Positions 1-40,441 of a DNA stretch of 64,000 nucleotides are shown here, piece after piece. The position numbers were made by a program, and so were the translations under genes. Numbering within the stretch: position 1 is the first letter of the stretch; every line of letters starts with the position of its first letter. Where the stretch lies: the NCBI GenBank assembly GCA_030650605.1, contig JAUSDP010000100.1, positions 16,383-80,382 of the forward strand, given 5' to 3'. The stretch comes from a bacterium. GTDB lineage: Bacteria > Patescibacteriota > Minisyncoccia > Phycocordibacterales > Zambryskibacteraceae. The notes under the pieces were generated by a model. The model ran no database searches, was not told the origin of the DNA, and saw only the letters and a program-made list of their open reading frames with translations.

Positions 1-33
1 GATATAAATTAAGCTTTAAAAGAAAGTAATTTT

Positions 34-1116
34 ATGATCACTACAGAAAGTCAACAAAAAGACGATTTGAAACTTCTATACCTTTTGGTACGTATTAATC
101 GTTTTTCATCGTATCGCCAAGTGAAAGAAGCGTACGAAGCCGTAGTCAAGAAAACCGAAAAGGACTACGCGTTTATCTTCAATAAAAAGGAGCGTGAAGT
201 TGAAATTCGCAATGCTCTGAATAAGTACATTACAGAAGAAATGCGTGAGTTTGAAGACCATGCGTTGGTTAAGCAGTATTACGCGCAAAAAGATCTGGAA
301 AATGAACTGCATAGTCGTAATGATTTTGAAAAACAACGTGACGAGATAAAACGATTTGATGAAATGCAAAAGGATCGTAAGAGCGAGGACGCACGAGATA
401 AAAAGTCAGAAAGAATTAAAGAAGAAATGACTGATGAACTCAAGTCAAATCAAAATCAAAAAATCTCCAAAACCGAAATTAAAGCCCAGGACATCAAAGG
501 CTTTACAGCCGTTGTCCTAAAAAATGGAATCGAGTACAGGAATGCTGAAGATAAATCTCTAGCTTTTGTGGATTCAGGCGCTCGCATAAAAATAGTGATG
601 TCAAAGAATGAAGCATCACGCCATGCAGCATTAAAGCTGGCATCGGAGAATTTCAATGACGGCTTCGTCTTTAAAGGAAGCGATGAAAAGAAGCGTCAGC
701 TTGCGAAAGACTGTGTTGCGTTGAACCTCGAGGACAAAATTAAAAATCCAGAGCTGAAAGAATTCATTGCGCAGCAGGTTAAAGAACGTGATTTGATAAA
801 TGGAAGAGATGCAGCCAAAGCCAGCGTTCAAGAGACAGTAAAAGAAGACGCGGTAAGTGAACTGAAATCTAAAGTCGAGCAAGTAAATGAAGTCTCGAAG
901 CAAGAGCGCGAAGTTGAACAAGTCTCTGAAAAAATTTCACTACCTGAACAAAAGAAAGAGCAAATTACAGCGTCCGATTCGACCCCTGAAAACTCGACAG
1001 TGCAAACAAATGGATTTGTATTCGATACAGCCAAATTACGCGAAATGGATCCAGCGAGAACGCAAGTGCAAGAAAATCAAAAACATCGCGAACAAGAACA
1101 AGAAATTGAACGATAA
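34..1116 (+). CDS. Hypothetical Lys/Glu-rich (coiled-coil-like) protein, 360 aa
   Basis: Long ORF with highly charged K/E-rich low-complexity composition and an ATG at 34 preceded by a purine-rich stretch. No recognisable catalytic motif. Confidence 0.4.
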   Translation: MITTESQQKDDLKLLYLLVRINRFSSYRQVKEAYEAVVKKTEKDYAFIFNKKEREVEIRNALNKYITEEMREFEDHALVKQYYAQKDLENELHSRNDFEKQRDEIKRFDEMQKDRKSEDARDKKSERIKEEMTDELKSNQNQKISKTEIKAQDIKGFTAVVLKNGIEYRNAEDKSLAFVDSGARIKIVMSKNEASRHAALKLASENFNDGFVFKGSDEKKRQLAKDCVALNLEDKIKNPELKEFIAQQVKERDLINGRDAAKASVQETVKEDAVSELKSKVEQVNEVSKQEREVEQVSEKISLPEQKKEQITASDSTPENSTVQTNGFVFDTAKLREMDPARTQVQENQKHREQEQEIER

Positions 1117-1331
1117 CATCAATCTCACCAAGGAATGAAAATGAATGCAAGCGAAATCTATGGCGTTAAGGCCGCAAAAAAAGTTCAAGCGGAAAATGTA
1201 AAACTTTGGGGTACGACTCAGGTAATAGAAAACCTACGTCTTGCACCGGCCGCAATTGCCAATATTCGTGCTCTTGAAAAAGAACGTGACCTCGAATTGC
1301 AAAAAGAAAAGACACCTCAGCGAGAACTGTA

Positions 1332-1673
1332 ATGAGAAAACTCATACTCATCATTTTGTTGGCCTTGAGTTTTCAGGCGACAGCTGGCATTAAGTTATCC
1401 AAGCCTGCTGCACCGGTTACTACGCCGACTGTGGCGCCCTCTTCAGTTCCCGCTTCGGCGGTTGCAGTGTCTACGCCAGAGCCAACCACAAAGCCAGAAG
1501 TAACTCCAGAAGCAAAGACTGAGAAAACATCAAAGGCAAGTGTTCCAACTGGTGAGAAGAAAGTAAAACAAGCCGCAAGTAAGCGTACAAAATCTGCAAT
1601 CAGAAACACTACTCAATACAAAGAGCAAGTGACCTACCTGAAAGCTGGCGCAACAATTTGGGGACAACACTAA
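1332..1673 (+). CDS. Secreted Pro/Thr/Ala-rich low-complexity protein
   Basis: N-terminal signal-peptide-like hydrophobic segment (MRKLILIILLALSFQATA), followed by a PTVAPSSVPASAV...PEPTTKPEVTPE linker-like sequence. Confidence 0.35.
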   Translation: MRKLILIILLALSFQATAGIKLSKPAAPVTTPTVAPSSVPASAVAVSTPEPTTKPEVTPEAKTEKTSKASVPTGEKKVKQAASKRTKSAIRNTTQYKEQVTYLKAGATIWGQH

Positions 1674-1977
1674 TGGTTAGCAAATCCGTTCTTGCCGCCG
1701 TTAAAGCACACGACCACGAGTATCCGAATCCAATTTTGGCGGGTCTGGCAGTTGGCAACGCTTTAAGAGAAAAAGTTAGACAAAGGAACGAAAGTGAAGG
1801 TGCTCAACAGCATTCGCAACTTGTCGCCAGGTGCGAGTCGCACAACGAAAAGACCCACAACGAGGAATTGTCGAAAGGCCTTGCGATAACAACTGAGAAG
1901 AAGCAAAACGCAGAAACGCGTAGCGCTAATGCAAATCAAAAAACACAATCTACCTTCGAACCATCGCCTTAGAAAGC

Positions 1978-2595
1978 ATGATCATGTTCAAATTAACAAA
2001 ACTGATATCAGCTATGTGCGTAATTGCCACAATTACTGGCTGTGCAGAAATGAAGAACCTTCAATCTGCGGCCAGCCAACTGCCACAAACGGCATCGAAG
2101 GCTTATCGCAATATCGTACCTGCAGAACCGCCCGAGCTCATTCGATTGCGCGAGGTATCAAAGGAAGATGACTCCATTTTGAATGCGCTCAATATGGTGA
2201 ACAAAGAGCATCCTGAACTCTCAAAACAAAAACTCTTGTGCGGTGGCACTTCGGATCCAGTTGAATTCAAATCGCAATCATATTCCTGGTCACCAGTACA
2301 GAAATTTCAGCTTTTTTGTACGTTGCCTGAAGACGTTCTTCGAGAGCGTGATACCGATTTGATAGCATATTCAAAAGCCATGGCAACTTATGCTGTTAAG
2401 CGTGGATCCAGAGAGCTTACTGGATTCGCAGTTCAAGCCCGCACAAAAGAGGATGCAGCCTTTCTCGAGACCGCTGTGGCATCCATCCTCAAAAATAAAG
2501 GGGTCCATTTAAATGTATTGGTCAACCCAAATGCCATGCCAACTTTGGCCATTCTGTCGCCAGGTCTGATCAAGCGCACTGTACGAGATCAGTAA
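1978..2595 (+). CDS. Putative lipoprotein, 205 aa
   Basis: Signal peptide ending in a lipobox-like ITGC (MIMFKLTKLISAMCVIATITGC). No catalytic motif recognised. Confidence 0.4.
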   Translation: MIMFKLTKLISAMCVIATITGCAEMKNLQSAASQLPQTASKAYRNIVPAEPPELIRLREVSKEDDSILNALNMVNKEHPELSKQKLLCGGTSDPVEFKSQSYSWSPVQKFQLFCTLPEDVLRERDTDLIAYSKAMATYAVKRGSRELTGFAVQARTKEDAAFLETAVASILKNKGVHLNVLVNPNAMPTLAILSPGLIKRTVRDQ

Positions 2596-2596
2596 A

Positions 2597-3271
2597 ATGA
2601 CACCAGAAATGACGAAATCAAGAAACACGCGAACGCGCGTACAGGTGTCGCCAATGATCACTCGAGCTGGTTCCGAATCGATTCGGGATTACAAGTTCTT
2701 AGCATCGCATCCAGACGTGCATTGCAATTCGGTTAGTGAATTTTCAAATATCGTCATTCGAGAATTCATCGATGCCAAGCCGTGGATGCAAACGTCTTGG
2801 AAATGGCAGATATCTCGGGCGAGCGAACGGATGTCAGGGAATACTGGCTGCCCACAATTTAATTTCATGGTATCAAACGACATTGAATTCGCTGTAAAAA
2901 ACGTGACGTCACGATTAATCATTGAAGCCGAAAAGGCTGCATGGAAGCAGACACTCGGCAATGGGGAAATCTCTTTTAACGATATCGAGACGCGCGTGAA
3001 TGCTAAGCTGGTATTACTGCAATCGAAAAGCAATTGCTTGGACACTGAAATAGAAGCGACATCGTGGAAGTATGTGCGATTGCATGATGACACCGTTGAT
3101 GCCATCATGAACGTTACCAAGCGACGTGTCTCATCTCTTCTTTCGAGCCAACAAAAGAATGGCTATGTTTGCAAAAATATTAGTGGATTCCTGCTCAGTG
3201 CGATGACATGGGCAACTCGTGGCGACAGTAGATTTTCGAAAATACTTAAACAGAGCTTGCGACAACAATGA
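2597..3271 (+). CDS. Hypothetical protein, 224 aa, translationally coupled to the downstream HAD-like gene
   Basis: ORF overlaps the next gene by 4 nt (ATGA-type coupling). No recognisable domain. Confidence 0.4.
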   Translation: MTPEMTKSRNTRTRVQVSPMITRAGSESIRDYKFLASHPDVHCNSVSEFSNIVIREFIDAKPWMQTSWKWQISRASERMSGNTGCPQFNFMVSNDIEFAVKNVTSRLIIEAEKAAWKQTLGNGEISFNDIETRVNAKLVLLQSKSNCLDTEIEATSWKYVRLHDDTVDAIMNVTKRRVSSLLSSQQKNGYVCKNISGFLLSAMTWATRGDSRFSKILKQSLRQQ

Positions 3272-3714
3272 TTGTATTCCTTGATATTGATGGTGTGCTG
3301 CATCCGGATCCCTGCTATGACAGAGACCTGCTACTTTCATGCTTGCCGAAGTTTGAGTCCGTGATCCGTGAGTTCCCAGGAGTTGAAATCGTAATAAGTA
3401 GCACCTGGCGTGAGAAAAGATCACTCACAGAATTGAGGGATCTTTTCTCACCCGATATCGCGCAAAGAATTATAGGAGTGACGCCCAGCTGGAAGGATCA
3501 TCAGGGCATTTTTAATAGAATTGGCTACCAACGTCATGCCGAAGTCGAAGCATGGCTGCGTGGGTCCTCAGAGCCATGGCGACGATGGGTGGCAATTGAT
3601 GACAAGCCATATTTGTTTCGACCATTTTCAAATCTCGTAAAGACCAAATCTGAGGTTGGATTCGATGATTTAAGTGAAATCGCACTACGCGATAAGCTAT
3701 CTGAAGCTGATTAG
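3268..3714 (+). CDS. Small HAD-superfamily hydrolase (phosphatase/5'-nucleotidase-like), paralog of 8593..9012
   Basis: N-terminal MIVFLDIDGVLH matches HAD motif I (DxDGV). The downstream ISSTWRE segment is shared with the paralog 8593..9012 (MIIFLDFDGVLH ... VISSSWRE). Confidence 0.55.
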   Translation: MIVFLDIDGVLHPDPCYDRDLLLSCLPKFESVIREFPGVEIVISSTWREKRSLTELRDLFSPDIAQRIIGVTPSWKDHQGIFNRIGYQRHAEVEAWLRGSSEPWRRWVAIDDKPYLFRPFSNLVKTKSEVGFDDLSEIALRDKLSEAD

Positions 3715-4019
3715 TTATCCACAAATTCTGTGTATAAGTTCAGTAAAAGCCATATGGGATCTAGCTGTTATCGTTAAATTAAAAATTAAGCAAAATGGTG
3801 CTTCTTTGTGCATAAACACTCGGTATGCTAAAGTCGGGAGGATATTTAAGTGCATTGAAAATTTAATGACGTAGTGAAAGCTGTACCGATCATTTGTCAT
3901 AGCTCTTTAAATCGAATCATCTACCTTTTGGCATGAGCTCGTAAAGTGCGCATTCCTTTTTTACCTACTCGCGTCTTCTGCCAAAGAGACGGCGCTCATT
4001 CATCGGTTTCTAAAATCCA

Positions 4020-6917
4020 ATGCCAGGAATTACAACTAGAATGCAGATTGGTCGCCTTCACGAAATGAAGGGACTCCCTATAAGAACACGCAATCAGGTA
4101 AGAGCCATCCTCGCAGTCGACAGCGACGTATCATTGAAACTCCTAAATCAACTTCGGGTCGAGAAGTCGGCAGGAGAACTACTTCAAATAGAACGAGTTT
4201 TACGCTACGATTTTTTGAAAACCATCCCAATGGTCCCAGATCTCTTCCCTGAATTCCCACAGACGGGTGAAGAATATGATCGACTGGCTAAAATAGATAT
4301 TGCCAAAGAGATTGAAATACTCGATCTTTTGACGTTGCGATGGCATGAGAAACTTGTTTTGCTCCTTGCGGCTATGCGGCGCCTTGACTCGGCAATTACG
4401 ATGAGAAACTTCAACGAAGGTTCTGTTCTTGTTGGCCAGATATATGCTGAATTTGGTTACAGTCATTTTCTTATTCGTAAAGCAGCTTTACTTTATACCC
4501 ATGCTGCAGGAATTACGGCAATACCTGAAGTTGACTCGATTCTGAGCGAGGCAGGACTCGATAACAAAAATATCGCAATGTCCTCGCTTATCCATTGCTT
4601 TAAAGAGGAGCAGGACTTTCTCAGTTTGAAGCGCTCGATAATGAATTTGCCCCAAAGAGGTATTGCTAATAAATTTACGAGGGATGTGTGTCGACTCCCG
4701 TTTCATCCGTTCGCGAAGGATGCCGCTGACTTTGGTGAACTTCTACAAAGTTGGCGCCAATCGTCGCTTATCGATGCAATTATTGGTGCCAAGGTGAACG
4801 TCCATTTAGTGGAGGCTGAAAATGGACGTTCAGTAAATCTGCGGGCATTGTTCGCTCATATAGATTCAAACGCATTGTCCATCGATCGCATCTTATCTAT
4901 CTACGATCTGGAGGATCCGGATAGCGAGACAACATTCTACAAGCAATCGAGTGCTTGGCTAGAAAATGCATGCATAGTTAAGTATCGCACGCTCGTCGAC
5001 CATTTTTACAATTTTCCGGAGTCTGACTATTTTGAATTTAATCAGGAATTGATCGCAAGAATTGCCAATTGGGCTGCCCCAATTGACTTGGCGGTACTCG
5101 CTACCACTTCTAAACTTTCTCACACTGATTCTGCGAGCATGATGGCCCTTGAGAGCCTTGGAACAGTGACGCGATCAGCGATGTTTAACTTCTCAGTATT
5201 TAATGTCGAAGGGTATGCAAAAATCAGTGAGACAGAATTGTTATCATTGATGGGTAGCACTAGAGATTTGGCGAAAACAATTAACCACAAATTTCTAAGT
5301 AATATGGCAAAAATGTCAACGTCGAAGTTGTCGCGTCTGATACTCTATTTTTTAATTGCAAAAAAGAGCAAAAACGAACTCGATGATCACCAGCTAAGGC
5401 GAATTTTCCAGGGGATTGTCCTAACAGAACACAATGGAAGCATAGTAGAACTGTTTGATGCTTTAAGTAAGATGTCACGAGTTGTAGCTGAGTATGCGTA
5501 TGAGATTTGCACAGAGGACTTCATCGCAAAATTATTTCATATCATAAAAACATCTTCCGAAATCACTGAAACGCGAGCTAGTCTACATAAGTGGATGGGG
5601 AAACTTACTGGGGAAAAGGCGTACCTAGACCGTGCCAGGACTCTTTTGATCGACCACCAACTAAACAAAATTCGTAACGAGATCGATGACAACCGCATCT
5701 ATGTGGACGCAGCCCGATTTGCAGAGTGGATGAACGATGAGGTAGGGCGCGACTTGAACGGCATCTTGACAAGTATTGAACACAAAAGCGCATTACTAGA
5801 AGCTGCGGATCCTCAGCTCATGGCTATTGTGGAGCGATGCTATGTCAACTTTTGTTCAAATAAGATTTTTGGCATCGCTTCATATTTGGGGCGACGTATC
5901 CGTCATGGAACGTTCAAGGGGCACTTGTTTTCGAACGTTGTTTCCATCGAGAGAAAGAAGGAATATGAATATCTTCTTTCAGATCCAGTAGTCGCCTCGA
6001 AGTGGGTACGTTGGAAAGCCGATTACGAGAAGATTATCGATGAGATAATCGTTAGTCGCCTGCATATCGAATCGCCAGGCAAGCGCGAGGGGCTATTAAA
6101 ACCTAGCGTTAATACTGCATTGAAGCTAGAAACGCTTTCAGCGTGTGCGAGAAACATCGCCCGAGACTTTTCTGAATCAAATAGCTCGTTTGGTGCGATC
6201 CCCATCATCACCGAATATTGCTGGCGTTTGGCTGAACATGATTTGAAGGATATCAACGGGTATTTGAAGAGTAAAAAGGCGGCGTTGATAAACACTGACC
6301 TTTTAACAGATTTGAAATCGTGTGTTTACGGTTCAAACTTGGGTGTCGCTCGTGATTTTTGTCGGGAACTTGTTCGCCTTATTGACGACAAGTTATTGTC
6401 AATGTACAACTGGTTCAAAAAACCTGCGAACGTTTCGCCGCAAGCGTCATTATCACTACTATATAAAGCAGTCGTAGCAGAGGTGCGCGAGGCATTTCCC
6501 GAATTTGACACGAGCACTGATTTTGACGATGCCAGAGATATTAAACTAGTTGGTGGTGCGTACCATGTTCTGTACGACTCATTCTATGTCATTGTTTATA
6601 ACGCAGCGAAGCATGGCAAGGCAGGCGAGGAACTTGAGCGGAATTTCGAGCTCATTGATGATACCGTTGAGCGGCGAAAAATGCTGAACATTAATGTCAC
6701 GTCGCTGATTAAGGACAACGAAAGCGAGGACTATGTTAGGAGTAGACTCGTCTTGGATAGGACACAAGATCTTGATGATGCTCAGGTCTCAGAGGATCGG
6801 AGTGGAATCCGAAAATTGTATTTCCTGGAGCATTGGAATCGAGATTTTTGTATCGGTGATATTTATTGTCGAAATCGTAAAGTAACTGTGAACCTAACCC
6901 ATGCTTTGGAACACTGA
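4020..6917 (+). CDS. dtcA: Detocs DtcA-like sensor histidine-kinase-like protein, 965 aa
   Basis: Large N-terminal region without known domain. C-terminus carries a histidine-kinase ATPase N-box-like motif (VIVYNAAKHGKAGEE). Stop overlaps the start of the next gene (TGATG). The gene order matches the Detocs three-gene architecture. Confidence 0.55.
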   Translation: MPGITTRMQIGRLHEMKGLPIRTRNQVRAILAVDSDVSLKLLNQLRVEKSAGELLQIERVLRYDFLKTIPMVPDLFPEFPQTGEEYDRLAKIDIAKEIEILDLLTLRWHEKLVLLLAAMRRLDSAITMRNFNEGSVLVGQIYAEFGYSHFLIRKAALLYTHAAGITAIPEVDSILSEAGLDNKNIAMSSLIHCFKEEQDFLSLKRSIMNLPQRGIANKFTRDVCRLPFHPFAKDAADFGELLQSWRQSSLIDAIIGAKVNVHLVEAENGRSVNLRALFAHIDSNALSIDRILSIYDLEDPDSETTFYKQSSAWLENACIVKYRTLVDHFYNFPESDYFEFNQELIARIANWAAPIDLAVLATTSKLSHTDSASMMALESLGTVTRSAMFNFSVFNVEGYAKISETELLSLMGSTRDLAKTINHKFLSNMAKMSTSKLSRLILYFLIAKKSKNELDDHQLRRIFQGIVLTEHNGSIVELFDALSKMSRVVAEYAYEICTEDFIAKLFHIIKTSSEITETRASLHKWMGKLTGEKAYLDRARTLLIDHQLNKIRNEIDDNRIYVDAARFAEWMNDEVGRDLNGILTSIEHKSALLEAADPQLMAIVERCYVNFCSNKIFGIASYLGRRIRHGTFKGHLFSNVVSIERKKEYEYLLSDPVVASKWVRWKADYEKIIDEIIVSRLHIESPGKREGLLKPSVNTALKLETLSACARNIARDFSESNSSFGAIPIITEYCWRLAEHDLKDINGYLKSKKAALINTDLLTDLKSCVYGSNLGVARDFCRELVRLIDDKLLSMYNWFKKPANVSPQASLSLLYKAVVAEVREAFPEFDTSTDFDDARDIKLVGGAYHVLYDSFYVIVYNAAKHGKAGEELERNFELIDDTVERRKMLNINVTSLIKDNESEDYVRSRLVLDRTQDLDDAQVSEDRSGIRKLYFLEHWNRDFCIGDIYCRNRKVTVNLTHALEH

Positions 6918-7366
6918 TGAAAAACGTTCTGATTATTGAAGACGATAGCTTCAAAAGCGATAATCTCGCGACTTTTCTGAAGGCAAATATAGGAAATGCG
7001 AATATTTCGCTTGCTTCAGACGTTGCGAGCGGCGTTTCGGCTGTCGAACGAAAAATATTTGACCTAATAATAATTGACATGGCCTTGCCAAGCCACCCTG
7101 TGGTGTCTGGAGGAGGCGCGCCAATGTCTTTACTAAGTGGTGGGTTGGAAATTCTATTTGAACTACGCTCGCTCGATCGTACTGATTTTTGCATCATAGT
7201 CACTCAATATCCAGAAGTGGAAATCTCGGGAAATTACTTTCCGGTTGAAAAAGCAGCGGCAGCTATTAAGACTCATTTTGACTGTGATGTCGGGGCATGC
7301 ATAGAATACGCCGAAGCATCTAATGCCTGGAAATTCGAGTTAATAAACTTAATTAAAAACATATGA
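6917..7366 (+). CDS. dtcB: Detocs DtcB-like stand-alone receiver (response-regulator receiver domain only), 149 aa
   Basis: MKNVLIIEDD ... DLIIIDMALP is a CheY-like receiver with the phospho-acceptor Asp context. There is no output domain. It is coupled to both neighbouring genes. Confidence 0.6.
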   Translation: MKNVLIIEDDSFKSDNLATFLKANIGNANISLASDVASGVSAVERKIFDLIIIDMALPSHPVVSGGGAPMSLLSGGLEILFELRSLDRTDFCIIVTQYPEVEISGNYFPVEKAAAAIKTHFDCDVGACIEYAEASNAWKFELINLIKNI

Positions 7367-8580
7367 AGATTCTTGTACTCGAAGACGACTCAACTAAAAG
7401 TGAGCTCGTCAAAGCAGAGATATCCAGCGTAGACCTTGCTGTCAGCGTTGAGATTGTTAGTAATTTACGTGACTACACGATAAAGGTGGGGCAAAACGTT
7501 TACGATCTGATCATAGTTGATCTCGTCGTTCCGCAGTTTCCATTTGACGCCCAGGCGATCGACGTAACTGGTCAAATTATTGACATTACCAGAGACCAGG
7601 ACTGTCTGAATTTTCGCTCTCCGGTTCTCGCACTCACACGATACAACGAAAAGGCTGAGGCGCAATTCGAAGATCTCAACCGAAAAGACATAACGATCGT
7701 TACGTTCGATGAGGATTCTGGACGTTGGAAAGAGAGTATTCGTGAAAAGGTCCGCAGTTGCGAACCTCCGGTTCACTACCCGTTTGTGATAATTTGTGCG
7801 CTGGCCAAGGAGGCTGACGCATACGCTGCGGCCGGTTATCAAGTCGGGGAGCGCCAAACAATAAAAGGTCTAGCTTGCAGAGAGATTTCAATCGGATTAG
7901 TAGTAGGGGTAATTATTACGGCGCCAAGAATGGGATTGGTTAGCTCTGCTATAACCAGTACCCAAGCGATAGAGGCATTTAAACCTAAATTAATTTGCAT
8001 GAGTGGGATTTGTGGAGGAGTTCCGGAAAAAACAAAGATATACGATGTTGTGATACCAGATATCTGTCACCAAAACGATTCCGGAAAATGGACGAACGCT
8101 GGCTTTGAATCTGAAGGGTACAGTGTACAGCTTGAGCATGGTATGAAATTAAAGATAGACGAGCTCATATCAAAGCCTGCCTTTCTTGAAACGGTGAAGC
8201 GTGACGTGATCCTTCGACGTGCCGAATTCCCTGAAGGAGCTGACGTACTAGATTTCAAAATTATTATTGCACCTACTTCTAGTGGCAGTGCGGTCATTGC
8301 CGATAAGGAAATGGTAGAAATTCTTAAAGAGCAACACAGAAAACTATCAGCCTTCGAAATGGAATCTTTTGCTGTCTTCGAGGCTGCCCGTTTGGCGCCG
8401 ACAAAACCCCAGTATTTCAGCGCAAAGGCAGTTGTCGATGATGGATCTCCAAGCAAAGGTGATCTCTTCCATAGGGTGGCGTGTATTCTTTCTGCGAAAG
8501 TAGTCTATGAATGCATTAAGTCCGGCTTGCTTCTAAGCGGAGGGGTAAGTCTCGAAACAAAACGGGGGAACATCAGTTAA
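7363..8580 (+). CDS. dtcC: Detocs DtcC-like effector: N-terminal receiver domain fused to a purine nucleoside phosphorylase (PNP_UDP_1-like) domain, 405 aa
   Basis: N-terminus MKILVLEDD ... YDLIIVDLVVP is receiver-like. The C-terminal half has a PNP/MTA-nucleosidase-like glycine-rich loop (MSGICGGVP) and the hallmark EMES motif (SAFEMESFAVFEAA). 4-nt overlap with dtcB. Confidence 0.65.
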   Translation: MKILVLEDDSTKSELVKAEISSVDLAVSVEIVSNLRDYTIKVGQNVYDLIIVDLVVPQFPFDAQAIDVTGQIIDITRDQDCLNFRSPVLALTRYNEKAEAQFEDLNRKDITIVTFDEDSGRWKESIREKVRSCEPPVHYPFVIICALAKEADAYAAAGYQVGERQTIKGLACREISIGLVVGVIITAPRMGLVSSAITSTQAIEAFKPKLICMSGICGGVPEKTKIYDVVIPDICHQNDSGKWTNAGFESEGYSVQLEHGMKLKIDELISKPAFLETVKRDVILRRAEFPEGADVLDFKIIIAPTSSGSAVIADKEMVEILKEQHRKLSAFEMESFAVFEAARLAPTKPQYFSAKAVVDDGSPSKGDLFHRVACILSAKVVYECIKSGLLLSGGVSLETKRGNIS

Positions 8581-8592
8581 GGCGAAAGTGAT

Positions 8593-9012
8593 TTAACTTG
8601 CTAAAATTTTTCTCAGTTTAAGCTCTATGATTTCGTCAAGGCCTGAATTTGACTGACATAGCAATAAGTGTGGACATCCATCAGGAAACTCGGCATGTGC
8701 ATCATCAATAGCAAGCCAGGGTCCACCATAATGATTTAGAGTTATCCAGGCTAAAATTTCTTCATAGCGCGAATATGGTGGTTTACCGTCACCATTGGGC
8801 GTCATGCCAAGGATTCTATCCTGAATATCTTCCGAAAATAGTCCCCAAATAACTTCAGAAGGATAGGCCTCGCGCCAGGATGAGGAAATTACGACCATCA
8901 GAGAGGGAAATTCTCGAAGAATATTTTCAAACCTCGTTAAATGATAAAAATGGCCACGTTCTCCAGCTGGCGATGAATGCAAGACACCATCAAAATCCAG
9001 AAAGATGATCAT
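8593..9012 (-). CDS. Small HAD-superfamily hydrolase, paralog of 3268..3714, coupled to the hipA-like gene
   Basis: MIIFLDFDGVLH (HAD motif I) and VISSSWRE. The start overlaps the HipA-like stop by 4 nt. Confidence 0.55.
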   Translation of the reverse strand: MIIFLDFDGVLHSSPAGERGHFYHLTRFENILREFPSLMVVISSSWREAYPSEVIWGLFSEDIQDRILGMTPNGDGKPPYSRYEEILAWITLNHYGGPWLAIDDAHAEFPDGCPHLLLCQSNSGLDEIIELKLRKILAS

Positions 9013-10352
9013 CGCCGCAATTCCTTAAGCTGATTTATTTGATTCTGAATTGCATAATACCGGGCTCCAATAATATCGCTATCAACTCCTTGTTCCGCCA
9101 TCACATCCGATAGCCCTTCAATTTTGGACCCAAAAATTCGTAATGCATCGGTCACAGTCGCAAGCTCATCTGGATCCAGTTCCAATGACGCCAGCACGTC
9201 AGCCCAGTTGGTAATCTCTGTTTTGCCACGTTTCCATCTCAGTGCCCGGGCAATGCCTTCTTTATCTAGATTCATCGGGGCGAAATCAAATAATGGTGTC
9301 AGCTGCACCCGACCATTCACAATCTGGACAGCAGTATTTCTTGCATGGTTATCTGTGTTGCCCATGGCCAGATTGAGCACATCACGCTTTATGAACTCAA
9401 TGGTAGCAGCAGTTTTATCGGTGACATGCAAACGTATTGCCGCCAATAGATCATTTTGTGACGGTCTCTGATCAAAGCCAATCTGGCCAACCAACGAGGC
9501 GCCACTTTCTTGATGGCGCCGTTCTATGCCTGATTCCGTCACCAACCTATCGAAGCGCGGGATAAATAGCATATCCGCATGCCATTCGGGAAGCTCATCA
9601 ACAGCGAGCCCCAGAGCTTTCGTTGTACGCATAAATGCAGCTTCATTTTTGAGGATTTTCAAATCAGATGGGTCCCGTCCGCGCGAAAGCTTAACTAGAT
9701 AATGCTTCTTTGCGTGGGCATCAGGAATGGCACCATCAAGATAAAACAAATCATCTTTACCTAGCGTCAGCATGAATTTTGGTGCCACGCCTTGCAGGCC
9801 TGTGGTGCCGGCAGTGAGCATATTGTGACCAAAGATATTTTCAAGAAATTCATCCTTGCGCTCCAGGATGTCTTGAAGCTTGAATCCACGTTTTGTCAAC
9901 TCATCTTGACGCTCTGGATGGACCTCATAAAAACGTGCGGACTCTCTTACTCGTAACCTGCCTATTGGATTGATTGCGCCGGCACAAAGGAGCTGCCAGT
10001 CTGCTGAGGGGCCATCTTGCAGGTTGAGTTCGCCCAGGAGATATTTGCGTCCTTTGCCCTGCGGAATGAGATCAAATAGAAAAGATGGCCAGCGGTCTAA
10101 ATGTGTGGAATTCCTACTGACTGGAATGCGAAGAGATGCCGGAGAATTCTTGTAGTTGTGCACAAATTCAGAATCATAAGTTATCCGTGATGCACCGGTA
10201 CCGCCCAAGGCCGGTTTATCGATTTCGATAGTGCAGCATTCCCTCCACTGGCCATCAATATGAATTTCGAATTCGCATGTGTTCATAAACGTAGATTCAT
10301 GAATTTTGAGTTCGTGGATCAACGGAGCAGCCAACCAAAAATTAGTGTCCAT
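9009..10352 (-). CDS. hipA: HipA-family serine/threonine kinase toxin-like protein, 447 aa
   Basis: C-terminal HipA catalytic-loop signature GNTDNHARNTAV (GNxDxHxxN). The overall length and N-terminal region are consistent with full-length HipA. Confidence 0.7.
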   Translation of the reverse strand: MDTNFWLAAPLIHELKIHESTFMNTCEFEIHIDGQWRECCTIEIDKPALGGTGASRITYDSEFVHNYKNSPASLRIPVSRNSTHLDRWPSFLFDLIPQGKGRKYLLGELNLQDGPSADWQLLCAGAINPIGRLRVRESARFYEVHPERQDELTKRGFKLQDILERKDEFLENIFGHNMLTAGTTGLQGVAPKFMLTLGKDDLFYLDGAIPDAHAKKHYLVKLSRGRDPSDLKILKNEAAFMRTTKALGLAVDELPEWHADMLFIPRFDRLVTESGIERRHQESGASLVGQIGFDQRPSQNDLLAAIRLHVTDKTAATIEFIKRDVLNLAMGNTDNHARNTAVQIVNGRVQLTPLFDFAPMNLDKEGIARALRWKRGKTEITNWADVLASLELDPDELATVTDALRIFGSKIEGLSDVMAEQGVDSDIIGARYYAIQNQINQLKELRR

Positions 10353-10382
10353 TCAAATCTTCGATACACCATGAACCACATT

Positions 10383-10730
10383 TTATGTTTTGTAAGTTGC
10401 ATTGATTCCGTTGGCAGAGAGTACCAATAATATCTCAGACACATCTTTTCCCTGATCGGTATTAGGTACACTTTTCCCAAATTGTATTTTGGGATCTTGG
10501 TTTGCTTCAAGAATTACCGTGCGATTTCTCTCTGAAGTTAAATGAAGAACCAATGGGTCAGAATTTGGATCGTTGGCTTGTCTATCAACCAAATACTTTA
10601 AAGCAGAATGTACTGTTGAAATTTCAGACGTTTTCCATAATTTGATGAACACCTGTGTTTTATTGAGGCCCCTGTTCGAATCAGACAAATATTCGTATAG
10701 AGGGACATCTGGCGCCGTCGTTTTATCCAT
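10383..10730 (-). CDS. Hypothetical protein upstream of hipA-like gene (sits where HipB would be, but has no obvious HTH)
   Basis: 115-aa ORF 30 bp upstream of the HipA-like gene. No XRE-type helix-turn-helix detected. Confidence 0.35.
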   Translation of the reverse strand: MDKTTAPDVPLYEYLSDSNRGLNKTQVFIKLWKTSEISTVHSALKYLVDRQANDPNSDPLVLHLTSERNRTVILEANQDPKIQFGKSVPNTDQGKDVSEILLVLSANGINATYKT

Positions 10731-10735
10731 TATTC

Positions 10736-10936
10736 CTATCTCGGGTTGTAACCAGCTTCGACCAGTGCATTAGCGATCTTGTCGCATCCATCTCGCATTA
10801 AATATGCTTCTTCGTCATCCACTGCGTTTTGACGCCACTCCGAAAATCCGACACGCTTCAAAAATTGTGCTAGAGCTTGTGCTTCTTCGTCAGACAAAAG
10901 TGCTGTGATAGTTACCATAAGTTTTTCCTCTTTCAA
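10736..10936 (-). CDS. Small hypothetical protein, 66 aa
   Basis: Short ORF immediately upstream of and co-oriented with 10383..10730. Confidence 0.3.
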   Translation of the reverse strand: MKEEKLMVTITALLSDEEAQALAQFLKRVGFSEWRQNAVDDEEAYLMRDGCDKIANALVEAGYNPR

Positions 10937-11014
10937 TTAAATCTGCTTGCGATATTCATGGGGCATTAAGGTAGTTCATGGCTGGTTTTCTCGGCCATCA
11001 TCTACTGGGAGTAA

Positions 11015-11785
11015 TTATTGTTTAATTTTCCAGAAGACTTCAGCAACGCCTTTTGAAACACGCAATGCTACAAAGAACATTAATAAAAGAGGCCAAGTCC
11101 GGGTTCTTTGACTCCAATCTTCAGTGTCTTTTTTATCCAACATGACTGGAAGTTGAAGTACATAAGCTACTGTGTTGGCCTTCATACACCCGTAAACTCG
11201 AGTATGGCTGTAACCACTCGGCAATGCCACAGATAGGTCAATTGGAAACGGAGGGCAGGCAGCATTTAGCAGGGAAGCATCAATGATTCCATGACTCGAT
11301 AAGGCAGTGATAAGTACAGCCAATCGCCCGCATCCTTTTGCCTCTGTAGGTTGCTGCTCATTGCATTCTTCGTTTGCGGCCAATTTGAGCAGTTGAATGG
11401 CATCGTTACGGCTTTCTGACCATTGGCGTTCTATGCGCGCCCTAGATTCGTCAGCGGACACGACGAACAATTGAATAATAGCGAACACCACACCAATTGC
11501 GGATGCAGATACCCACAATAGATCGATAACTTTGAGATGAAAGGAAGTAATGCGCCTTGAAGCGATGCCCACAATCGAAGACAAGGTCACGATCGTGACA
11601 AGCATGTTTGTTGCAGCCCATTTACTTACTTGCATTACAGGGGCATCAATTCCAGGAAGACGCATGAAGCAGTAATACATTCCCGCAAGACCAATAAATG
11701 CTCCAAAGTAAGCCAGCTTTATTCTTGACGGCAATATTGACCACTGTGTAAACGATCTCTTAGCGAATTGAATTCCGTTGGCCAA
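11015..11785 (-). CDS. Integral membrane protein, 256 aa
   Basis: Several hydrophobic helices (e.g. LAYFGAFIGLAGMYYCF, NMLVTIVTLSSIVGIA, LLWVSASAIGVVFAIIQLFVV). Confidence 0.45.
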   Translation of the reverse strand: MANGIQFAKRSFTQWSILPSRIKLAYFGAFIGLAGMYYCFMRLPGIDAPVMQVSKWAATNMLVTIVTLSSIVGIASRRITSFHLKVIDLLWVSASAIGVVFAIIQLFVVSADESRARIERQWSESRNDAIQLLKLAANEECNEQQPTEAKGCGRLAVLITALSSHGIIDASLLNAACPPFPIDLSVALPSGYSHTRVYGCMKANTVAYVLQLPVMLDKKDTEDWSQRTRTWPLLLMFFVALRVSKGVAEVFWKIKQ

Positions 11786-11880
11786 CTTGGACTCCTTTGA
11801 TTTATTAAGTTACGAAAATAATTTCGCTGAGCTGAAATGTTAATCGCATTTAGAACTCTTGCGTAAGGGATTCTGAAATT

Positions 11881-27644: not shown

Positions 27645-28850
27645 TTATCTGGATGAACTGTTTTTTTCTAATTTCGCTGTTTTGGGATCATAAATAAATT
27701 CAGTAATCGATCCATCCCGAATCCGATGCACAGCCTCATCGATTACACTCAACGGCACCAGGAACCACTCTCTCGGTTTCACAGGATTCCCAAATCGGTC
27801 ATCAATAGTTAAATCAAGTTGGGCGCCGGCGAAGATCCGATGAAATAAGTTTTCCAAACTGATGCGGTTCAAATTGTGAAGCTTATACGTGGCCACTACG
27901 TCGACATCAGCCAACAAATAAGTGGCATCCTTCGATGCGTTTGCAATCCTGGTCTCAACCTTCCCTCCGGTCACTCCTATTTTATGGATCAGCTCGCGAT
28001 GTTCAGTAACAAATGGATGCGTTGATTTACTCTGGAGTACATAGATGGTCCCAGTCGCAATGTCTGCCGGCTCGGCAACACTACCAAACAGTGGTCCGTC
28101 ATCCTTGCGAATGAGGCGCCGTCCAACAGGCGTGTCACCATCTGGATACAGGGATCTGGAAAGAGATCTCAATAACAAGTTACCTTCAGTCCCGTTATCA
28201 AAAATAACCCGCAGCCGAGGGTTATCGCGCCCATCCTTGGTCTTATTGGCGTCGTTCATTTCGGCGACGTAAGATGTCTGGCCACTGACAATATAGAAAT
28301 CTCCCACATTGATACTGGCATCCTTAGCGAATGGCTTCGTCATCCAGGTGCCGGCTTTGAGTCCAGATATGGCTTCATCGAACAAATGTTTGAAATTATC
28401 GAAATCCGCGCACGGAGTTCGATTTGCGACTTCTTCAGCGGCCTGAATTTCAACACTGGAGCGAACATGGCGCAAAACTCGGATGTCATTTTCATCCGTG
28501 AGCTCAGTGCTAATCCCGAGCTCAGCAAGTAATGCGTCCTCGTCTAAGCTATCGACATCAACTGCATTTGCTACGACACCAGAAAGCAGCCCGGGTCCAT
28601 CCATAGCGCCCAGCAGAGATTGAGCTTCTGGTAACTTACGAATTTGATCGAGCCGAACAGCATAAATGCGCTCGAAAATATCACCGCTCTCTCCATGCAA
28701 TGGGGCTCGGCCGTGTGCCTGATGGAATCGCAGAATATCTTCGAAGCCAGCAATAATGCGTTCTTCGCGCGCAGTTCGACTTGATACCTTAATCGGAGTG
28801 GCATCAATGCCAAGCGCATCTAGAAGTTCATCATCATTCATTTCAGCCAT
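27645..28850 (-). CDS. T5orf172 / GIY-YIG-like (MUG113-type) domain protein, third gene of the MTase-helicase operon, about 401 aa
   Basis: C-terminal GIY-YIG/T5orf172 signature (GTIYVLQS ... HKIGVTGG ... REWFLV). The chosen ATG at 28850 overlaps the helicase stop (ATGGCTGA). The longer ORF from 29015 would run 170 bp into the helicase gene. Confidence 0.6.
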   Translation of the reverse strand: MAEMNDDELLDALGIDATPIKVSSRTAREERIIAGFEDILRFHQAHGRAPLHGESGDIFERIYAVRLDQIRKLPEAQSLLGAMDGPGLLSGVVANAVDVDSLDEDALLAELGISTELTDENDIRVLRHVRSSVEIQAAEEVANRTPCADFDNFKHLFDEAISGLKAGTWMTKPFAKDASINVGDFYIVSGQTSYVAEMNDANKTKDGRDNPRLRVIFDNGTEGNLLLRSLSRSLYPDGDTPVGRRLIRKDDGPLFGSVAEPADIATGTIYVLQSKSTHPFVTEHRELIHKIGVTGGKVETRIANASKDATYLLADVDVVATYKLHNLNRISLENLFHRIFAGAQLDLTIDDRFGNPVKPREWFLVPLSVIDEAVHRIRDGSITEFIYDPKTAKLEKNSSSR

Positions 28851-30954
28851 TGCTTGAATCCTTTTGCGATTGAGCTGCTTTAGCTTGGGAATATCTGGTA
28901 AAAGCAGCGACGCCTTCGGCCATACGTTTTTCCCAGGCATCCGACGAATTGATATCCGGCAGGCGGCCTCGTTCATTTTTAAACTGAACCGCTCGCCTCG
29001 CAAGGTCGCGAGCATCTTCTTCAGAAATATTTACTCTCTTAGCAGCAATTGTCGCTTGGACTTGTCTTAAAGATTTTTCGTCCATCGCCTTCGCTAAAAC
29101 AGCGTAGGCGGCATCGAAAGGGTTAATGCGATCGATCAGATCGATATCAAGATCACGAACATTAATGAATTTACGGACCCCATCAAGAAACGCTGAGTTA
29201 CCTGGTGGCGTGCCATCATTAGCATCAACTTTAGCCAACTCCAGCTTCGCTTGCTGGGTTACATTCATCGCCGCGATGGCATGTTGACGGATTGATTCCT
29301 GATCAGTATCACTTAAATCTGGGTAACGCTCCCGCACGATCTTACCCATATGGAGTTGAGTGAGTTCTTCTGGTAACGTGTTTTCTTTATCAAAGAGACC
29401 GCGCTCCAAAACTGTTTTCTCTTGTAAAAAACTGGTCACAACTTCGTTTAGGTCTTCCTTGCAGATACGTGTAGCCTCGGGGCTTTGAGGTTTTACCAGC
29501 CCATTGATCTCCACGTGGATCTGACCGGTTTCTTTGTTGACGCCAACGTTTTTACCGTCTTCCTTGTAGCCATCGTCACCGTAATCAAAACCTTCCTTCG
29601 GTCCTGCATTTTTAGGCGTGAACTCATACCGTGGTGCCAAAACTTGTTCCATCAGAAGACTGGCAGAGATTGCCTTGAGCATGTCATTCACGGCTTCAGC
29701 GACAAGTGATTGCTCGGCTGCCGGTTCTGCAATCAAGTTTGTGAAACGGGAACGCTCTTTACCCTCAGCATCACGAGTCGCACGACCAATAATCTGAACG
29801 ATTTCAGTTAAGCTGCTTCTGTAACCTACTGTCAAAGCGTGCTCACACCAAATCCAATCGAAGCCTTCTTTTGCCATGCCGAGGGCAATAATGACATCCA
29901 CGAAATCGCGGTTATTTTTTTGTTTAGGATCTTTTAACGCCGTGAGTACATTCGATCGCTTAGCTTGATCGCTGTCATCTACCAGATCGGCTACTTTCAA
30001 TATGCGGCCATCTTTAGTTTGGACCAGATGAAAACCTGTAATAGGGTCGACACCTTTCCAGTCTCCCATTCCGTGCATGATGTCATTCACTTCGCGCTGC
30101 TTGTCTTTGAGGCTTTCACGCGCATTCACGTTAGGAATGTGAACGATAGTTTTCAAAGAGGGATCTAAAACTTTGTGGATTGCATCAACATAAGGACCGG
30201 TGTAGAAAAAATAACCGATGTCCAGTGATTTGAGCCATTGATACCCATTGAGCTGCTCGTAATACGTGTATGTGATCGTTTCGAATTTGGACTCATCTGT
30301 TGGTGACATCACCGCTTCACTGTCACCACGGAAGTAGGAGCCCGTCATAGCAACCAAGTGCGCCTTATCTCGGGCGATGAGAGCACCTAATTGAGCGCCC
30401 AACTTATTGTCGGGGTTGCTGGAAACATGGTGAAATTCATCAATAGCAACCAGGCGGTCATCAAACGCTTGAATGCCTAGCTCTTCCACCGCGAACCTGA
30501 ATGTGGCATGAGTACAAACGAGAACCTTATCGGCTCCTTCCAAAAACTGTTTTACCGCGTCCACTTTTGACTTAGCCACACGTGGCTCATCGACGCCTGG
30601 TGCGTTGCACAGGTTCCATTGTGGTTCGACTTTCCAATCCCAATAGAACCCAAACTTACTCAAAGGTTCATCGGCAAAGCTGCTTCCAATGGAGCGCTCT
30701 GGTACCACGACGATTGCTTGTTTGAGACCTTGATTATTGATTTTATCGAGCGCGATGAACATGAGGGCTCGGGATTTACCAGATGCCGGAGGTGACTTGA
30801 TCAGCAGATATTGTTCACCACGTTTGGCATAAGCGCGCTCTTGCATGGTACGCATCCCCAGCTCGTTTGCTTTGCTGGATGCGCCGGTGCACGCAGTCGC
30901 AATCGATACTGATGGAACCGTGTATTTATTCGTCGGATTGCTCGATTGATCCAT
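28843..30954 (-). CDS. SF2 DEAD/DEAH-box helicase (restriction Res/HsdR-like motor without a recognisable nuclease domain), 703 aa
   Basis: Motif I KSPPASGKS, motif II VAIDEFHH and motif VI QIIGRATRD. The start codon overlaps the MTase stop (TAATG). Confidence 0.75.
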   Translation of the reverse strand: MDQSSNPTNKYTVPSVSIATACTGASSKANELGMRTMQERAYAKRGEQYLLIKSPPASGKSRALMFIALDKINNQGLKQAIVVVPERSIGSSFADEPLSKFGFYWDWKVEPQWNLCNAPGVDEPRVAKSKVDAVKQFLEGADKVLVCTHATFRFAVEELGIQAFDDRLVAIDEFHHVSSNPDNKLGAQLGALIARDKAHLVAMTGSYFRGDSEAVMSPTDESKFETITYTYYEQLNGYQWLKSLDIGYFFYTGPYVDAIHKVLDPSLKTIVHIPNVNARESLKDKQREVNDIMHGMGDWKGVDPITGFHLVQTKDGRILKVADLVDDSDQAKRSNVLTALKDPKQKNNRDFVDVIIALGMAKEGFDWIWCEHALTVGYRSSLTEIVQIIGRATRDAEGKERSRFTNLIAEPAAEQSLVAEAVNDMLKAISASLLMEQVLAPRYEFTPKNAGPKEGFDYGDDGYKEDGKNVGVNKETGQIHVEINGLVKPQSPEATRICKEDLNEVVTSFLQEKTVLERGLFDKENTLPEELTQLHMGKIVRERYPDLSDTDQESIRQHAIAAMNVTQQAKLELAKVDANDGTPPGNSAFLDGVRKFINVRDLDIDLIDRINPFDAAYAVLAKAMDEKSLRQVQATIAAKRVNISEEDARDLARRAVQFKNERGRLPDINSSDAWEKRMAEGVAAFTRYSQAKAAQSQKDSSNG

Positions 30955-38378: not shown

Positions 38379-39365
38379 CTACTGATTGCTAAGAACAAGA
38401 TTTCTTAAGGCGTCAATCATTAGGCTGTTAACCACATTCTTATCTATATTTTCGTCCTTTATATCAATAACGATTTGATTATTTTTAATTTTCACAGTGA
38501 ACATAGAATCTCCCTGTAAATTTGAAACAATCGTAGGCTTAACAATCGGACTACGACTACGGTTCAATAATGCTCGTTCCACGAATGATCGTAAATCATC
38601 ACTGTTAAGTTCGTTATTATCAATAAGCTGCTCAATGCCCTGAGTTATTGTATCGATGCCTAACGGAAATTCCTTCATTAAATCTGAGACGACAACTCCA
38701 TATCGATATCCAAAAAGCCCAGGATATTTATCAAGAATATCTTTGACTTCGAGTGGCAAAGATAAAAGACTTAAACATTGCGAGACTCGAGCTTGAGTGC
38801 AACCAAATAAACGAGCAACCTCAGTTTGGTTTTTTGCAAATCCACGATCCACACTTTTGCGGTAGGCTAAACCCTTTTCATAGTCAGTAAGGTCTACCCG
38901 TCCTTCATTGCTAACTAAAGTTGCAAGCTCGGCATCGCGGTCATTTAAAACAACTATTTGGGCCTTTATGGTGCTCCAGCCAATTAACCTGGCAGCACGT
39001 ACTCGACGATGGCCTGCAATAAGCTCAAAACGCCCCGTAGGGAGTTTTCTAACGATAATTGGATCGTCTTGCCCTCGATCCTGAAGCATCTCTCCTAATG
39101 CCTGAATATAACCTTCATCGTACCTAGAACGTGGTTGCCATGGCGAGTCATCAACTAAATTGACTGCAATTGTTTCAATGTAGTTATTACCATCTTGATT
39201 TACTAATTGAGCATTTTGAGTGTCTTCGATTAAAGCCTCTAAGCTTTTCGAATTGGTAGATGGAGGCTTGGTCATTACCATGCCATTATTTTTTGTCGCC
39301 ATATCTTGCTGAAACTTCCTTCTCAGCTCATCGTTAAATTCAGCTTCGGTTTTCTTTTGATTCAT
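38379..39365 (-). CDS. parB: ParB-family partition protein, 328 aa
   Basis: ParB N-terminal box IVRKLPTGRFELIAGHRRVRAARL. 4-nt overlap with parA upstream. Confidence 0.8.
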   Translation of the reverse strand: MNQKKTEAEFNDELRRKFQQDMATKNNGMVMTKPPSTNSKSLEALIEDTQNAQLVNQDGNNYIETIAVNLVDDSPWQPRSRYDEGYIQALGEMLQDRGQDDPIIVRKLPTGRFELIAGHRRVRAARLIGWSTIKAQIVVLNDRDAELATLVSNEGRVDLTDYEKGLAYRKSVDRGFAKNQTEVARLFGCTQARVSQCLSLLSLPLEVKDILDKYPGLFGYRYGVVVSDLMKEFPLGIDTITQGIEQLIDNNELNSDDLRSFVERALLNRSRSPIVKPTIVSNLQGDSMFTVKIKNNQIVIDIKDENIDKNVVNSLMIDALRNLVLSNQ

Positions 39366-40441
39366 AAGACACCCATACGGCCAACGAGAGCCTGTGCAAC
39401 AGCACGCAACTCCACAGAAGCATTACTGCTTGGTTTCGCGACAGCTAATGGCAATTCATAATCTTCAGAAGATAGAACCTTTTTAAATTCTTCAGAGCTA
39501 CTAATCGATTTATCAACCCAAGAATCTTTATATTGATTCACCAAAGTAATAACTTGGGCGGCAACTCGCAATCTAGTCTTATCGTAGAAATTACCCAGAA
39601 TTAACAACTCAGGATACTTTCCTAAGCTACTTTCCATTTCTCCCAAAACTTTCGCTAAATAAGAAACCGATTTTGTACTGTATCTTTCCATAGATACTGG
39701 AGCTACTACATAATCACTGGCTAATAATGCACCCCTGGTCGTTTGATTTTTAGCTGGGGGAGCATCAAAAAGAATAACGTCGTAGGACGATAAATCAAGA
39801 TCAGGATTTGTTCCGTTCATACCTTCATACAAAAATTTGGCAATTGTAGTTTCAGGATTTTTACCCATGATCGTGTCAAGTGTGAAAAGTGCTTCTAGTC
39901 TGTCCAAGCTGACCTCGCTTGGTATCAGATGAGGACCGAATTCTCCGAAGGGCTTTTTGATAACATCATTTAACGGTGGAGTTGATGAAGCCTGCCATTG
40001 CGGCATCAAATGTCCGAAATGATAGTCAATACATTTATCGATTGGAATGTTGTCGTCTAGAGCTTGTTCATGCGTAAGTTCTGCGTCATAACCGAATGAC
40101 ATAGATAAATTAGCTTGAAAATCGAGATCAATAACTAAGGTTTTCAGCCCCATTAATGGGAAAAGTGTGCTTAAATTTGAAGCTACCGTAGTTTTTCCAA
40201 CCCCACCTTTTGGAGCGTAAATTGTCATAATGACTTTACGTTTTGGTGTGAGACCAATTTTCTTAGCTCTAAATCTCGCTAATTCAAAAATGTTTTCAAT
40301 ACTGAAAAGACGAGTTTTAGGACCATCACCAGTCTGTCTTTGAATAAGAATTCCTGATTCGTCTGTATCACGTCGAATGGAATCTACAGTTGTTCCGAGC
40401 AAGTTTGCAACTGCTTGAACCTTGAAAGGTTTGCGTTCCAA
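39362..40441 (-). CDS. parA: ParA-family partition ATPase (type Ia, with N-terminal HTH-like extension), 359 aa
   Basis: Deviant Walker A box TIYAPKGGVGKTTVASN. About 100-aa N-terminal extension. Confidence 0.85.
   Translation of the reverse strand: MERKPFKVQAVANLLGTTVDSIRRDTDESGILIQRQTGDGPKTRLFSIENIFELARFRAKKIGLTPKRKVIMTIYAPKGGVGKTTVASNLSTLFPLMGLKTLVIDLDFQANLSMSFGYDAELTHEQALDDNIPIDKCIDYHFGHLMPQWQASSTPPLNDVIKKPFGEFGPHLIPSEVSLDRLEALFTLDTIMGKNPETTIAKFLYEGMNGTNPDLDLSSYDVILFDAPPAKNQTTRGALLASDYVVAPVSMERYSTKSVSYLAKVLGEMESSLGKYPELLILGNFYDKTRLRVAAQVITLVNQYKDSWVDKSISSSEEFKKVLSSEDYELPLAVAKPSSNASVELRAVAQALVGRMGVL

Follow-up and report, generated by a model that had tools for sequence, protein, structure and literature searches.

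In this work we analyzed a 64,000 bp stretch of DNA from an uncultured bacterium (contig JAUSDP010000100.1 of assembly GCA_030650605.1; hereafter the window) and the three-gene dtcABC locus that it carries. The first gene encodes a sensor kinase-like protein (DtcA), the second a stand-alone receiver (DtcB), and the third a receiver fused to a purine nucleoside phosphorylase (PNP) domain (DtcC). Judged from its sequence, the locus is a genuine and intact member of the Detocs family, belonging to a divergent branch of this already described system. It is carried by a plasmid and is enclosed by two convergent genes encoding HAD_SAK_2 proteins (Table 1).

The first-pass annotation of this region described three coupled genes on the + strand, and the corresponding open reading frames (ORFs) were found in exactly this arrangement. 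Stop and start codons overlap at both junctions (TGATG between dtcA and dtcB, ATGA between dtcB and dtcC), so the three genes are translationally coupled. The length of 965 aa ascribed to the first protein is that of the longest ORF, but the start codon is probably the ATG at 4041 and not that at 4020, giving 958 aa, since the identical protein has this length in public gene calls and homology at the DNA level to L069, the closest Detocs locus, starts at position 4040. Scans for promoters and terminators gave signals at chance level only, and no RNA family from Rfam was matched within the window.

The motifs quoted for the three proteins (the N-box, the receiver Asp motifs and EMES) were each located where they had been placed. 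The N-terminal two-thirds of DtcA is predicted to be all-helical and is followed by the motif FGIASYLGRRIRHGT, which holds H629; at the C-terminus there is a DHp-CA-like module with N861 in the sequence NAAKHG (residues 861–866). In DtcB, D54 is contained in IIIDMA. The DtcC receiver possesses D8, K12 and D53 (the latter in IIVDLV), and the PNP domain, approximately from residue 135 to 390, contains MSGICGG, SSGS, EME (332–334, within FEMES at 331–335) and the predicted catalytic D359.

Table 1. Positions of the dtcABC genes and of other plasmid features in the 64-kb window.
Feature	Position	Strand	Description
dtcA	4020/4041–6917	+	Longest ORF 965 aa; likely start 4041 (958 aa); sensor kinase-like
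dtcB	6917–7366	+	149 aa; stand-alone receiver, proposed "buffer"; residues E8, D9, K13, D54, T96
dtcC	7363–8580	+	405 aa; receiver-PNP effector, predicted ATP nucleosidase
Cargo segment	3793–8580	+	dtcABC cassette with 227–248 bp of upstream DNA; stretch differing from the related plasmid L074
HAD_SAK_2 paralogue 1	3268–3714	+	Pfam 1.1e-28; last gene of the upstream operon, after two unknown genes; 4-nt overlap with the stop of the preceding ORF
HAD_SAK_2 paralogue 2	8593–9012	-	Pfam 4.3e-25; 4-nt overlap with the HipA-like ORF 9009–10352
Rep_3 initiator	40886–42094		One of two such genes in the window
Rep_3 initiator	59661–60680		One of two such genes in the window
ParB-type gene	38379–40441		One of two such genes in the window
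ParB-type gene	57858–59084		One of two such genes in the window

The window proteins were compared with the Detocs system of Vibrio alginolyticus UCD-32C, for which full-length VaDtcB and VaDtcC and the first 399 residues of VaDtcA were used (Table S1 of 10.1101/2023.01.24.525353). In that system, defence is lost in the mutants DtcA H645A, DtcC D58A and DtcC D353A, an Asp mutant of VaDtcB shows toxicity that depends on the PNP, the isolated PNP domain frees adenine from ATP and dATP, and ATP depletion is triggered by phage (10.1101/2023.01.24.525353). The gene order is the same in both cases, with an operon of 4561 bp here and 4548 bp in Vibrio. The window DtcC aligned with VaDtcC from end to end (34% identity, E = 1e-75), D53 corresponding to D58 and D359 to D353; its PNP domain alone was 40% identical to that of VaDtcC (E = 1e-64, 191 bits). 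Similarly, DtcB aligned with VaDtcB over the full length (34% identity, E = 3e-28).

Comparison of the DtcA proteins required a different route, as BLASTP of the window DtcA against VaDtcA residues 1–399 gave nothing significant. The mapping runs through two orthologues, one from Vibrio proteolyticus (L032) and one from Colwellia (L034), the numbering of the latter being equal to that of VaDtcA. Their N-termini match the VaDtcA fragment with E-values of 3e-174 and 2e-169, respectively (67% identity over the 399 residues for L032), while the window DtcA matches them in phmmer at 8e-88 and 1e-89, over residues 340/384–938. Intermediate members of the family match the window protein over residues 20–938. 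Residue 645 of the Colwellia protein is the His of the motif FGIASYLGRRIRHGT and aligns with H629 of the window DtcA. All residues mutated in the published work are kept here, namely H629 of DtcA (H645 in V. alginolyticus), D53 and D359 of DtcC, and D54 of DtcB.

Thus, each of the three proteins is a colinear homologue of its Vibrio counterpart, and they have in common with the Vibrio proteins the GRRIRHG motif, both receiver Asp residues and the PNP catalytic Asp. They differ in that DtcB and DtcC are only about 34% identical to their Vibrio counterparts, in the plasmid location of the window copy and in a C-terminal tail of about 15 residues that the window DtcC has of its own. In addition, the first 340–380 or so residues of DtcA, the presumed sensor, have no pairwise similarity to VaDtcA and are linked to it through intermediates; the trigger specificity may therefore differ from that in Vibrio.

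The PADLOC models PDC-M60A, PDC-M60B and PDC-M60C matched the three window proteins with E-values of 3.2e-14 (residues 433–900 only), 1.5e-21 and 5.4e-59 (198 bits for the whole DtcC), respectively. Similar scores and the same pattern were obtained on the Vibrio side, with 3e-16 for the VaDtcA orthologue, 1e-17 for VaDtcB and 1.4e-64 for VaDtcC. Since the validated Vibrio proteins match these models likewise, PDC-M60 is Detocs under another name. The PDC-M60A match is partial and weak (50 bits) for the window DtcA and for the Vibrio orthologue alike, and the A models evidently derive from sequences of a branch that is more distant. In the Pfam scan, Response_reg was found in DtcB (9.8e-8) and PNP_UDP_1 in DtcC (1.7e-15). 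The Pfam label PF27260 "Y4jQ", borne by DtcA and all its relatives, is a precomputed one, this family being newer than the scanned library.

By means of DtcC relatives, 66 Detocs loci were recovered from species-representative genomes, and in 55 of them relatives of DtcA and DtcB lie immediately upstream of the DtcC relative. In the published detection rule, at most one foreign gene is allowed between the components (10.1101/2023.01.24.525353).

Alignment of the Detocs proteins revealed the following invariant positions: (i) G618, S621, R625, R626, R628, H629, W735, W798, P802, D853, N861 and G929 in 49 DtcA, H629 forming part of the motif SYLGRRIRHG (49/49); (ii) E8, D9, K13 and D54 in 55 DtcB; and (iii) D8, K12, D53, E150, MSGI.G, G308, M333, E334, K355, D359, K365 and D367 in 54 DtcC. 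It should be mentioned that in both types of Detocs receivers (loci L003–L058) the pattern E-D-x-x-x-K after strand 1 is invariant, with the Lys being K13 in DtcB and K12 in DtcC, whereas at the canonical position, following the conserved Thr, no conserved Lys was found. The peculiarity is common to the whole family.

The Detocs (DtcA/DtcB/DtcC) architecture claimed in the first-pass annotation is thus borne out by the colinear homology to the V. alginolyticus proteins, the retention of the essential residues and the shared PADLOC pattern. Two of the checks suggested there, a search with the PADLOC models and an alignment of the receiver Asp residues with the V. alginolyticus proteins, were carried out, and both were positive. 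We estimate at about 0.88 the probability that the locus is a complete and apparently functional Detocs system with the same mechanism as in Vibrio. The support for the window copy consists of homology, gene order, conservation of essential residues and fold.

According to this mechanism, DtcA would sense infection through its large helical N-terminal region, and its C-terminal kinase-like ATPase module would phosphorylate the invariant H629. DtcA would then hand the phosphate to D53 in the receiver of DtcC, and energy depletion would abort the infection. D54 of DtcB would compete for the phosphate and is proposed to soak up leaky signalling. Phosphotransfer, ATP cleavage and phage defence are ascribed to the window copy by analogy with the experiments on its Vibrio homologue.

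The same biochemistry might serve another role, for example, if the cassette acted mainly in plasmid maintenance or in competition between mobile elements by killing cells that lose the plasmid or are entered by a rival element. Such a role would be in line with the position of the cassette, which is plasmid cargo with a HipA-like toxin kinase as its neighbour and a type IIG restriction enzyme at a distance of about 22 kb, and with the occurrence of DtcC homologues on 47 plasmids of the PLSDB database, 29 of which are predicted to be conjugative. Furthermore, the toxicity of the Vibrio DtcB Asp mutant indicates a system poised to kill (10.1101/2023.01.24.525353). At the same time, the homologous genome loci are mostly chromosomal, there is no sign that DtcB is less stable than DtcC, as an addiction module would need, and the sole experimental data describe ATP depletion triggered by phage (10.1101/2023.01.24.525353). 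We therefore regard this role as unlikely and defence against phage as the probable function.

Several observations weigh against the Detocs reading, most of them concerning DtcA as a histidine kinase. A Pfam scan of DtcA gave no HisKA or HATPase_c match, and no histidine kinase was found among PDB sequences either with the DtcA family profile or with phmmer. H629 lies 232 residues before N861, about twice the usual spacing, and in the AlphaFold2 models it is located at the break between two short helices (619–628 and 631–645) and probably not in the long hairpin beside the ATPase domain. The autophosphorylation logic of DtcA is, for these two reasons, not a textbook one. D899, the expected G1-box Asp, is Asp in only 16 of 49 DtcA proteins, although this loop is poorly aligned and the point is uncertain. 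Finally, some 15 codons at the end of dtcC (8537–8580, residues ~391–405) are unique to this plasmid. As the homology to L069 ends at 8536 and the plasmid backbone resumes at 8581, after the stop codon, the 3' end of the cassette may have been remodelled at insertion.

The orthologues of VaDtcA did not match Pfam either (same library), so the absence of a HisKA/HATPase_c signal characterizes the DtcA family as a whole, and the caveats of sequence, spacing and G1 Asp hold equally for the validated Vibrio system. The family profile found only 874 cluster representatives among 1.84 billion proteins, which shows the family to be small and isolated in sequence space.

The structural models provided evidence of another kind. 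The AlphaFold2 model of the full-length DtcA (mean pLDDT 89.2) consists of about 600 helical N-terminal residues, further helices and an alpha/beta domain at 808–962; a separate model of residues 596–965 had a pLDDT of 88.1. In Foldseek searches against PDB these models matched almost only DHp-CA modules (CpxA, RetS, ZraS, LvrB, bacteriophytochrome, HK853) and pyruvate dehydrogenase kinases, with a probability of 1.00, E-values down to 1e-4 (C-terminal model) and target-normalised TM-scores of ~0.4–0.56. The N-box Asn N861 and the G2-like Gly G929 are both invariant (49/49). The models thus support a kinase fold at the C-terminus of DtcA. Since a HisKA domain is not recognizable, the kinase assignment rests on this similarity of fold together with the homology to VaDtcA.

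The C-terminal ~250 residues of DtcA have the same predicted fold as canonical HisKA/HATPase_c kinases such as CpxA, HK853 and RetS, i.e., a helical hairpin followed by an alpha/beta ATPase domain, and contain the N-box-like NAAKHG. Unlike the canonical sensor kinases, with which it has no detectable sequence homology, DtcA lacks a transmembrane or periplasmic sensor. The phospho-accepting His of EnvZ, CpxA and HK853 precedes the N-box Asn by ~105–120 residues, in contrast to ~230 in DtcA. From this spacing, H629 would be expected upstream of the hairpin that corresponds to DHp in the models. It can be tentatively hypothesized, with considerable doubt, that the DtcA (Y4jQ) family forms a distinct class of histidine kinases, in which the phospho-His belongs to a short-helix element of its own, located ~100 residues upstream of the DHp-like hairpin, an organization closer to the CheA or HPt type than to HisKA. 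Of the earlier statement on a HisKA H-box, the invariant His motif and the alignment of H629 with H645 of V. alginolyticus remain, while the HisKA domain itself could not be recognized. The first-pass annotation had also considered a first protein without a phospho-accepting His to be evidence against Detocs; an invariant His motif was found in DtcA.

Alternatively, DtcA may be no true autophosphorylating kinase. Its His would then serve the structure or some other catalysis, while the receivers would be controlled in a different manner, for example, by binding or by small phosphodonors. The lack of a HisKA/HATPase_c signal, the failure of the family profile to reach canonical kinases, the unusual spacing of His and Asn and the variable residue at the G1 position all agree with this. 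They are set against Foldseek matches that are nearly all DHp-CA kinase modules, the invariance of the N-box Asn and the G2-like Gly, the full acidic pocket and phospho-accepting Asp kept in the Detocs receivers, and the loss of defence in both the His and the Asp mutants of the Vibrio system (10.1101/2023.01.24.525353). On balance, we consider a non-kinase DtcA improbable, slightly more so than the role in plasmid maintenance, and DtcA as a putative histidine kinase that would signal to the two receivers the better description.

The relation of the PNP domain to housekeeping enzymes was assessed through scores. The best NCBIfam match of the window DtcC was NF004079 (MTA/SAH nucleosidase; 1.7e-12), which scored 47.4 bits where the cut-off is 169, and the DeoD model gave ~17 bits (cut-off ~230). 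For the PNP domain, MtnN-type models and structures yielded 24–47 bits (PDB match 1.8e-4), compared with 191 bits for the VaDtcC PNP. By these scores the domain fits the Detocs effectors far better than MtnN or DeoD and does not appear to be a housekeeping one. A closer alignment to housekeeping DeoD/MTAN, which the first-pass annotation had named as evidence against Detocs, was thus not observed. An ordinary regulatory two-component system tied to an MtnN- or DeoD-type nucleosidase, to which the weak MTA/SAH nucleosidase matches and the public annotation of DtcC as "nucleoside phosphorylase" might point, is effectively refuted by these values and by the 198 bits on PDC-M60C, the housekeeping models all being far under their cut-offs, as well as by a locus that has no DNA-binding output, devotes one gene to a stand-alone receiver and is mobile cargo.

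Another immune effector to be compared is Cap17, a TPALS-PNP protein of type III CBASS. The window PNP matches the PADLOC CBASS "PN-superfamily" effector model at 7.7e-15 and shows weak similarity to the available part of Cap17 (36.6 bits). The PNP domains of Detocs and Cap17 fall into one immune clade in the published tree. The N-terminal domain and the mode of activation differ, as Cap17 has a cyclic-nucleotide sensor whereas the window DtcC has a phospho-receiver.

The surroundings of the cassette were compared with those in L074, a related plasmid from another sequencing run. In blastn, positions 1–3792 and 8581–10289 of the window were homologous to L074 (94.8% and 90.7% identity, respectively), with no homology between them. 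L074 keeps both HAD genes, the HipA-like gene and the LPD7 gene in the same order (91% nucleotide identity for the HipA-HAD pair). Between its HAD genes (3160–6001) there are no dtcABC genes; instead it contains four unrelated genes, encoding proteins of 81 aa, 373 aa (HTH_3/Peptidase_M78, ImmA/IrrE-like), 176 aa and 221 aa. Since L074 retains the HAD genes with other genes between them, the HAD genes belong to the backbone and the segment 3793–8580 is exchangeable cargo. In this plasmid family the cargo at the site between the convergent HAD_SAK_2 genes is variable, and the pair may mark a cargo-exchange hotspot where defence cassettes are swapped. The junctions of the cassette, compared with L074, showed no informative repeats. 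The closest Detocs locus, L069 (73% nucleotide identity), covers only positions 4040–8536 and is set among unrelated catabolic genes.

The inverted HAD-like paralogues flanking the cassette, pointed out in the first-pass annotation, are real; as backbone genes retained in L074, they lose the special significance given to them there. The two proteins are 39% identical and are encoded by the only two HAD_SAK_2 genes of the window. Three further interpretations of these genes were examined. A recent inverted duplication or transposon-like ends were rejected, as complementarity between the genes is confined to a 36-nt stretch (78%) and the identity of their proteins is 39%. A function as a Detocs accessory was likewise ruled out: no HAD_SAK_2 gene occurs at the other Detocs loci (flanks of up to 8 kb per side for the 66 genome loci, of up to 8–10 kb across all loci examined, and less on short contigs). 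The HipA-HAD combination as a widely conserved pair was not supported outside this plasmid family, being kept in L074 and absent from the more distant HAD_SAK_2 contexts.

HAD_SAK_2 homologues elsewhere adjoin genes of calcineurin-like metallophosphoesterases in mobile settings, in three of three contexts (L070, L071/L072 and L073), and in L073 a convergent HAD pair surrounds a metallophosphoesterase gene. Four metallophosphoesterase genes are present in the window (44282–45088, 53115–53921, 54930–55682 and 55682–57382), three of which weakly match PADLOC PDC-S10. HAD_SAK_2 domains were reportedly first described in a polyvalent-protein context by Burroughs and Aravind.

To the right of the cassette, the region 8593–10936 (- strand) looks like an operon comprising genes for DUF7706 (66 aa), an unknown 115-aa protein, a HipA-like kinase (447 aa; HipA_C 2e-28) and HAD_SAK_2. 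A HipA-like kinase toxin together with a HAD phosphatase-like protein could represent an unusual toxin-antitoxin arrangement. A second segment that varies relative to L074 was found at 10290–11880. Here, between the HipA-like and relaxase genes, the window contains DUF7706, the gene of 115 aa and a gene for a predicted protein of 256 aa. In L074 the relaxase gene is located 81 bp past the HipA-like gene.

The first-pass annotation placed the locus on a mobilizable plasmid. Its plasmid nature is backed by two Rep_3 initiators, ParA/ParB and a TrwC/TraI-type relaxase-helicase in the window; the replicon further contains a second ParB-like gene, a tyrosine integrase and a type IIG restriction-methylase. 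Mobilizability is plausible but unproven. Among the larger ORFs scanned, no genes for type IV secretion were found, and the source contig (80.7 kb) extends past the window. The presence of two Rep_3 and two ParB-type genes suggests a multi-replicon or cointegrate plasmid. A Rep protein of the window is ~44% identical to plasmid initiators of Paraburkholderia and Ralstonia. As megablast of positions 3200–9100 against PLSDB gave no match, the plasmid has no close sequenced relative in that database. The plasmid location itself had been considered notable, but with DtcC homologues already on the PLSDB plasmids mentioned above, plasmid-borne Detocs is not unusual.

Two other regions of the plasmid should be mentioned. 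At 28843–33734 (- strand) a gene for an MmeI-like type IIG restriction-methyltransferase (926 aa; PADLOC 2e-279) is situated directly upstream of that for a DEAD/ResIII helicase with a pseudomurein-binding repeat; on its family matches, this locus is a second defence system of the same plasmid. At 34–1116 there is a gene for a protein with the large polyvalent protein-associated domain 7 (LPD7), and a 1059-aa gene lies upstream of it on the source contig. We take this arrangement to be typical of the "polyvalent" anti-defence proteins of plasmid leading regions.

The locus adds one more intact Detocs, only ~34% identical to the tested one and located on a plasmid of an uncultured bacterium, and the comparison identifies PADLOC PDC-M60 and Pfam PF27260 "Y4jQ" as names for components of Detocs. 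Together with L074, the relative with alternative cargo, it provides a clean natural case in which a defence cassette is exchanged while its site on the plasmid stays fixed. The current understanding of Detocs is unchanged by the window copy. What remains of interest is the kinase architecture, unusual and common to the whole DtcA family, and the divergent sensor region, which can be compared with that of Vibrio in the search for the Detocs trigger.

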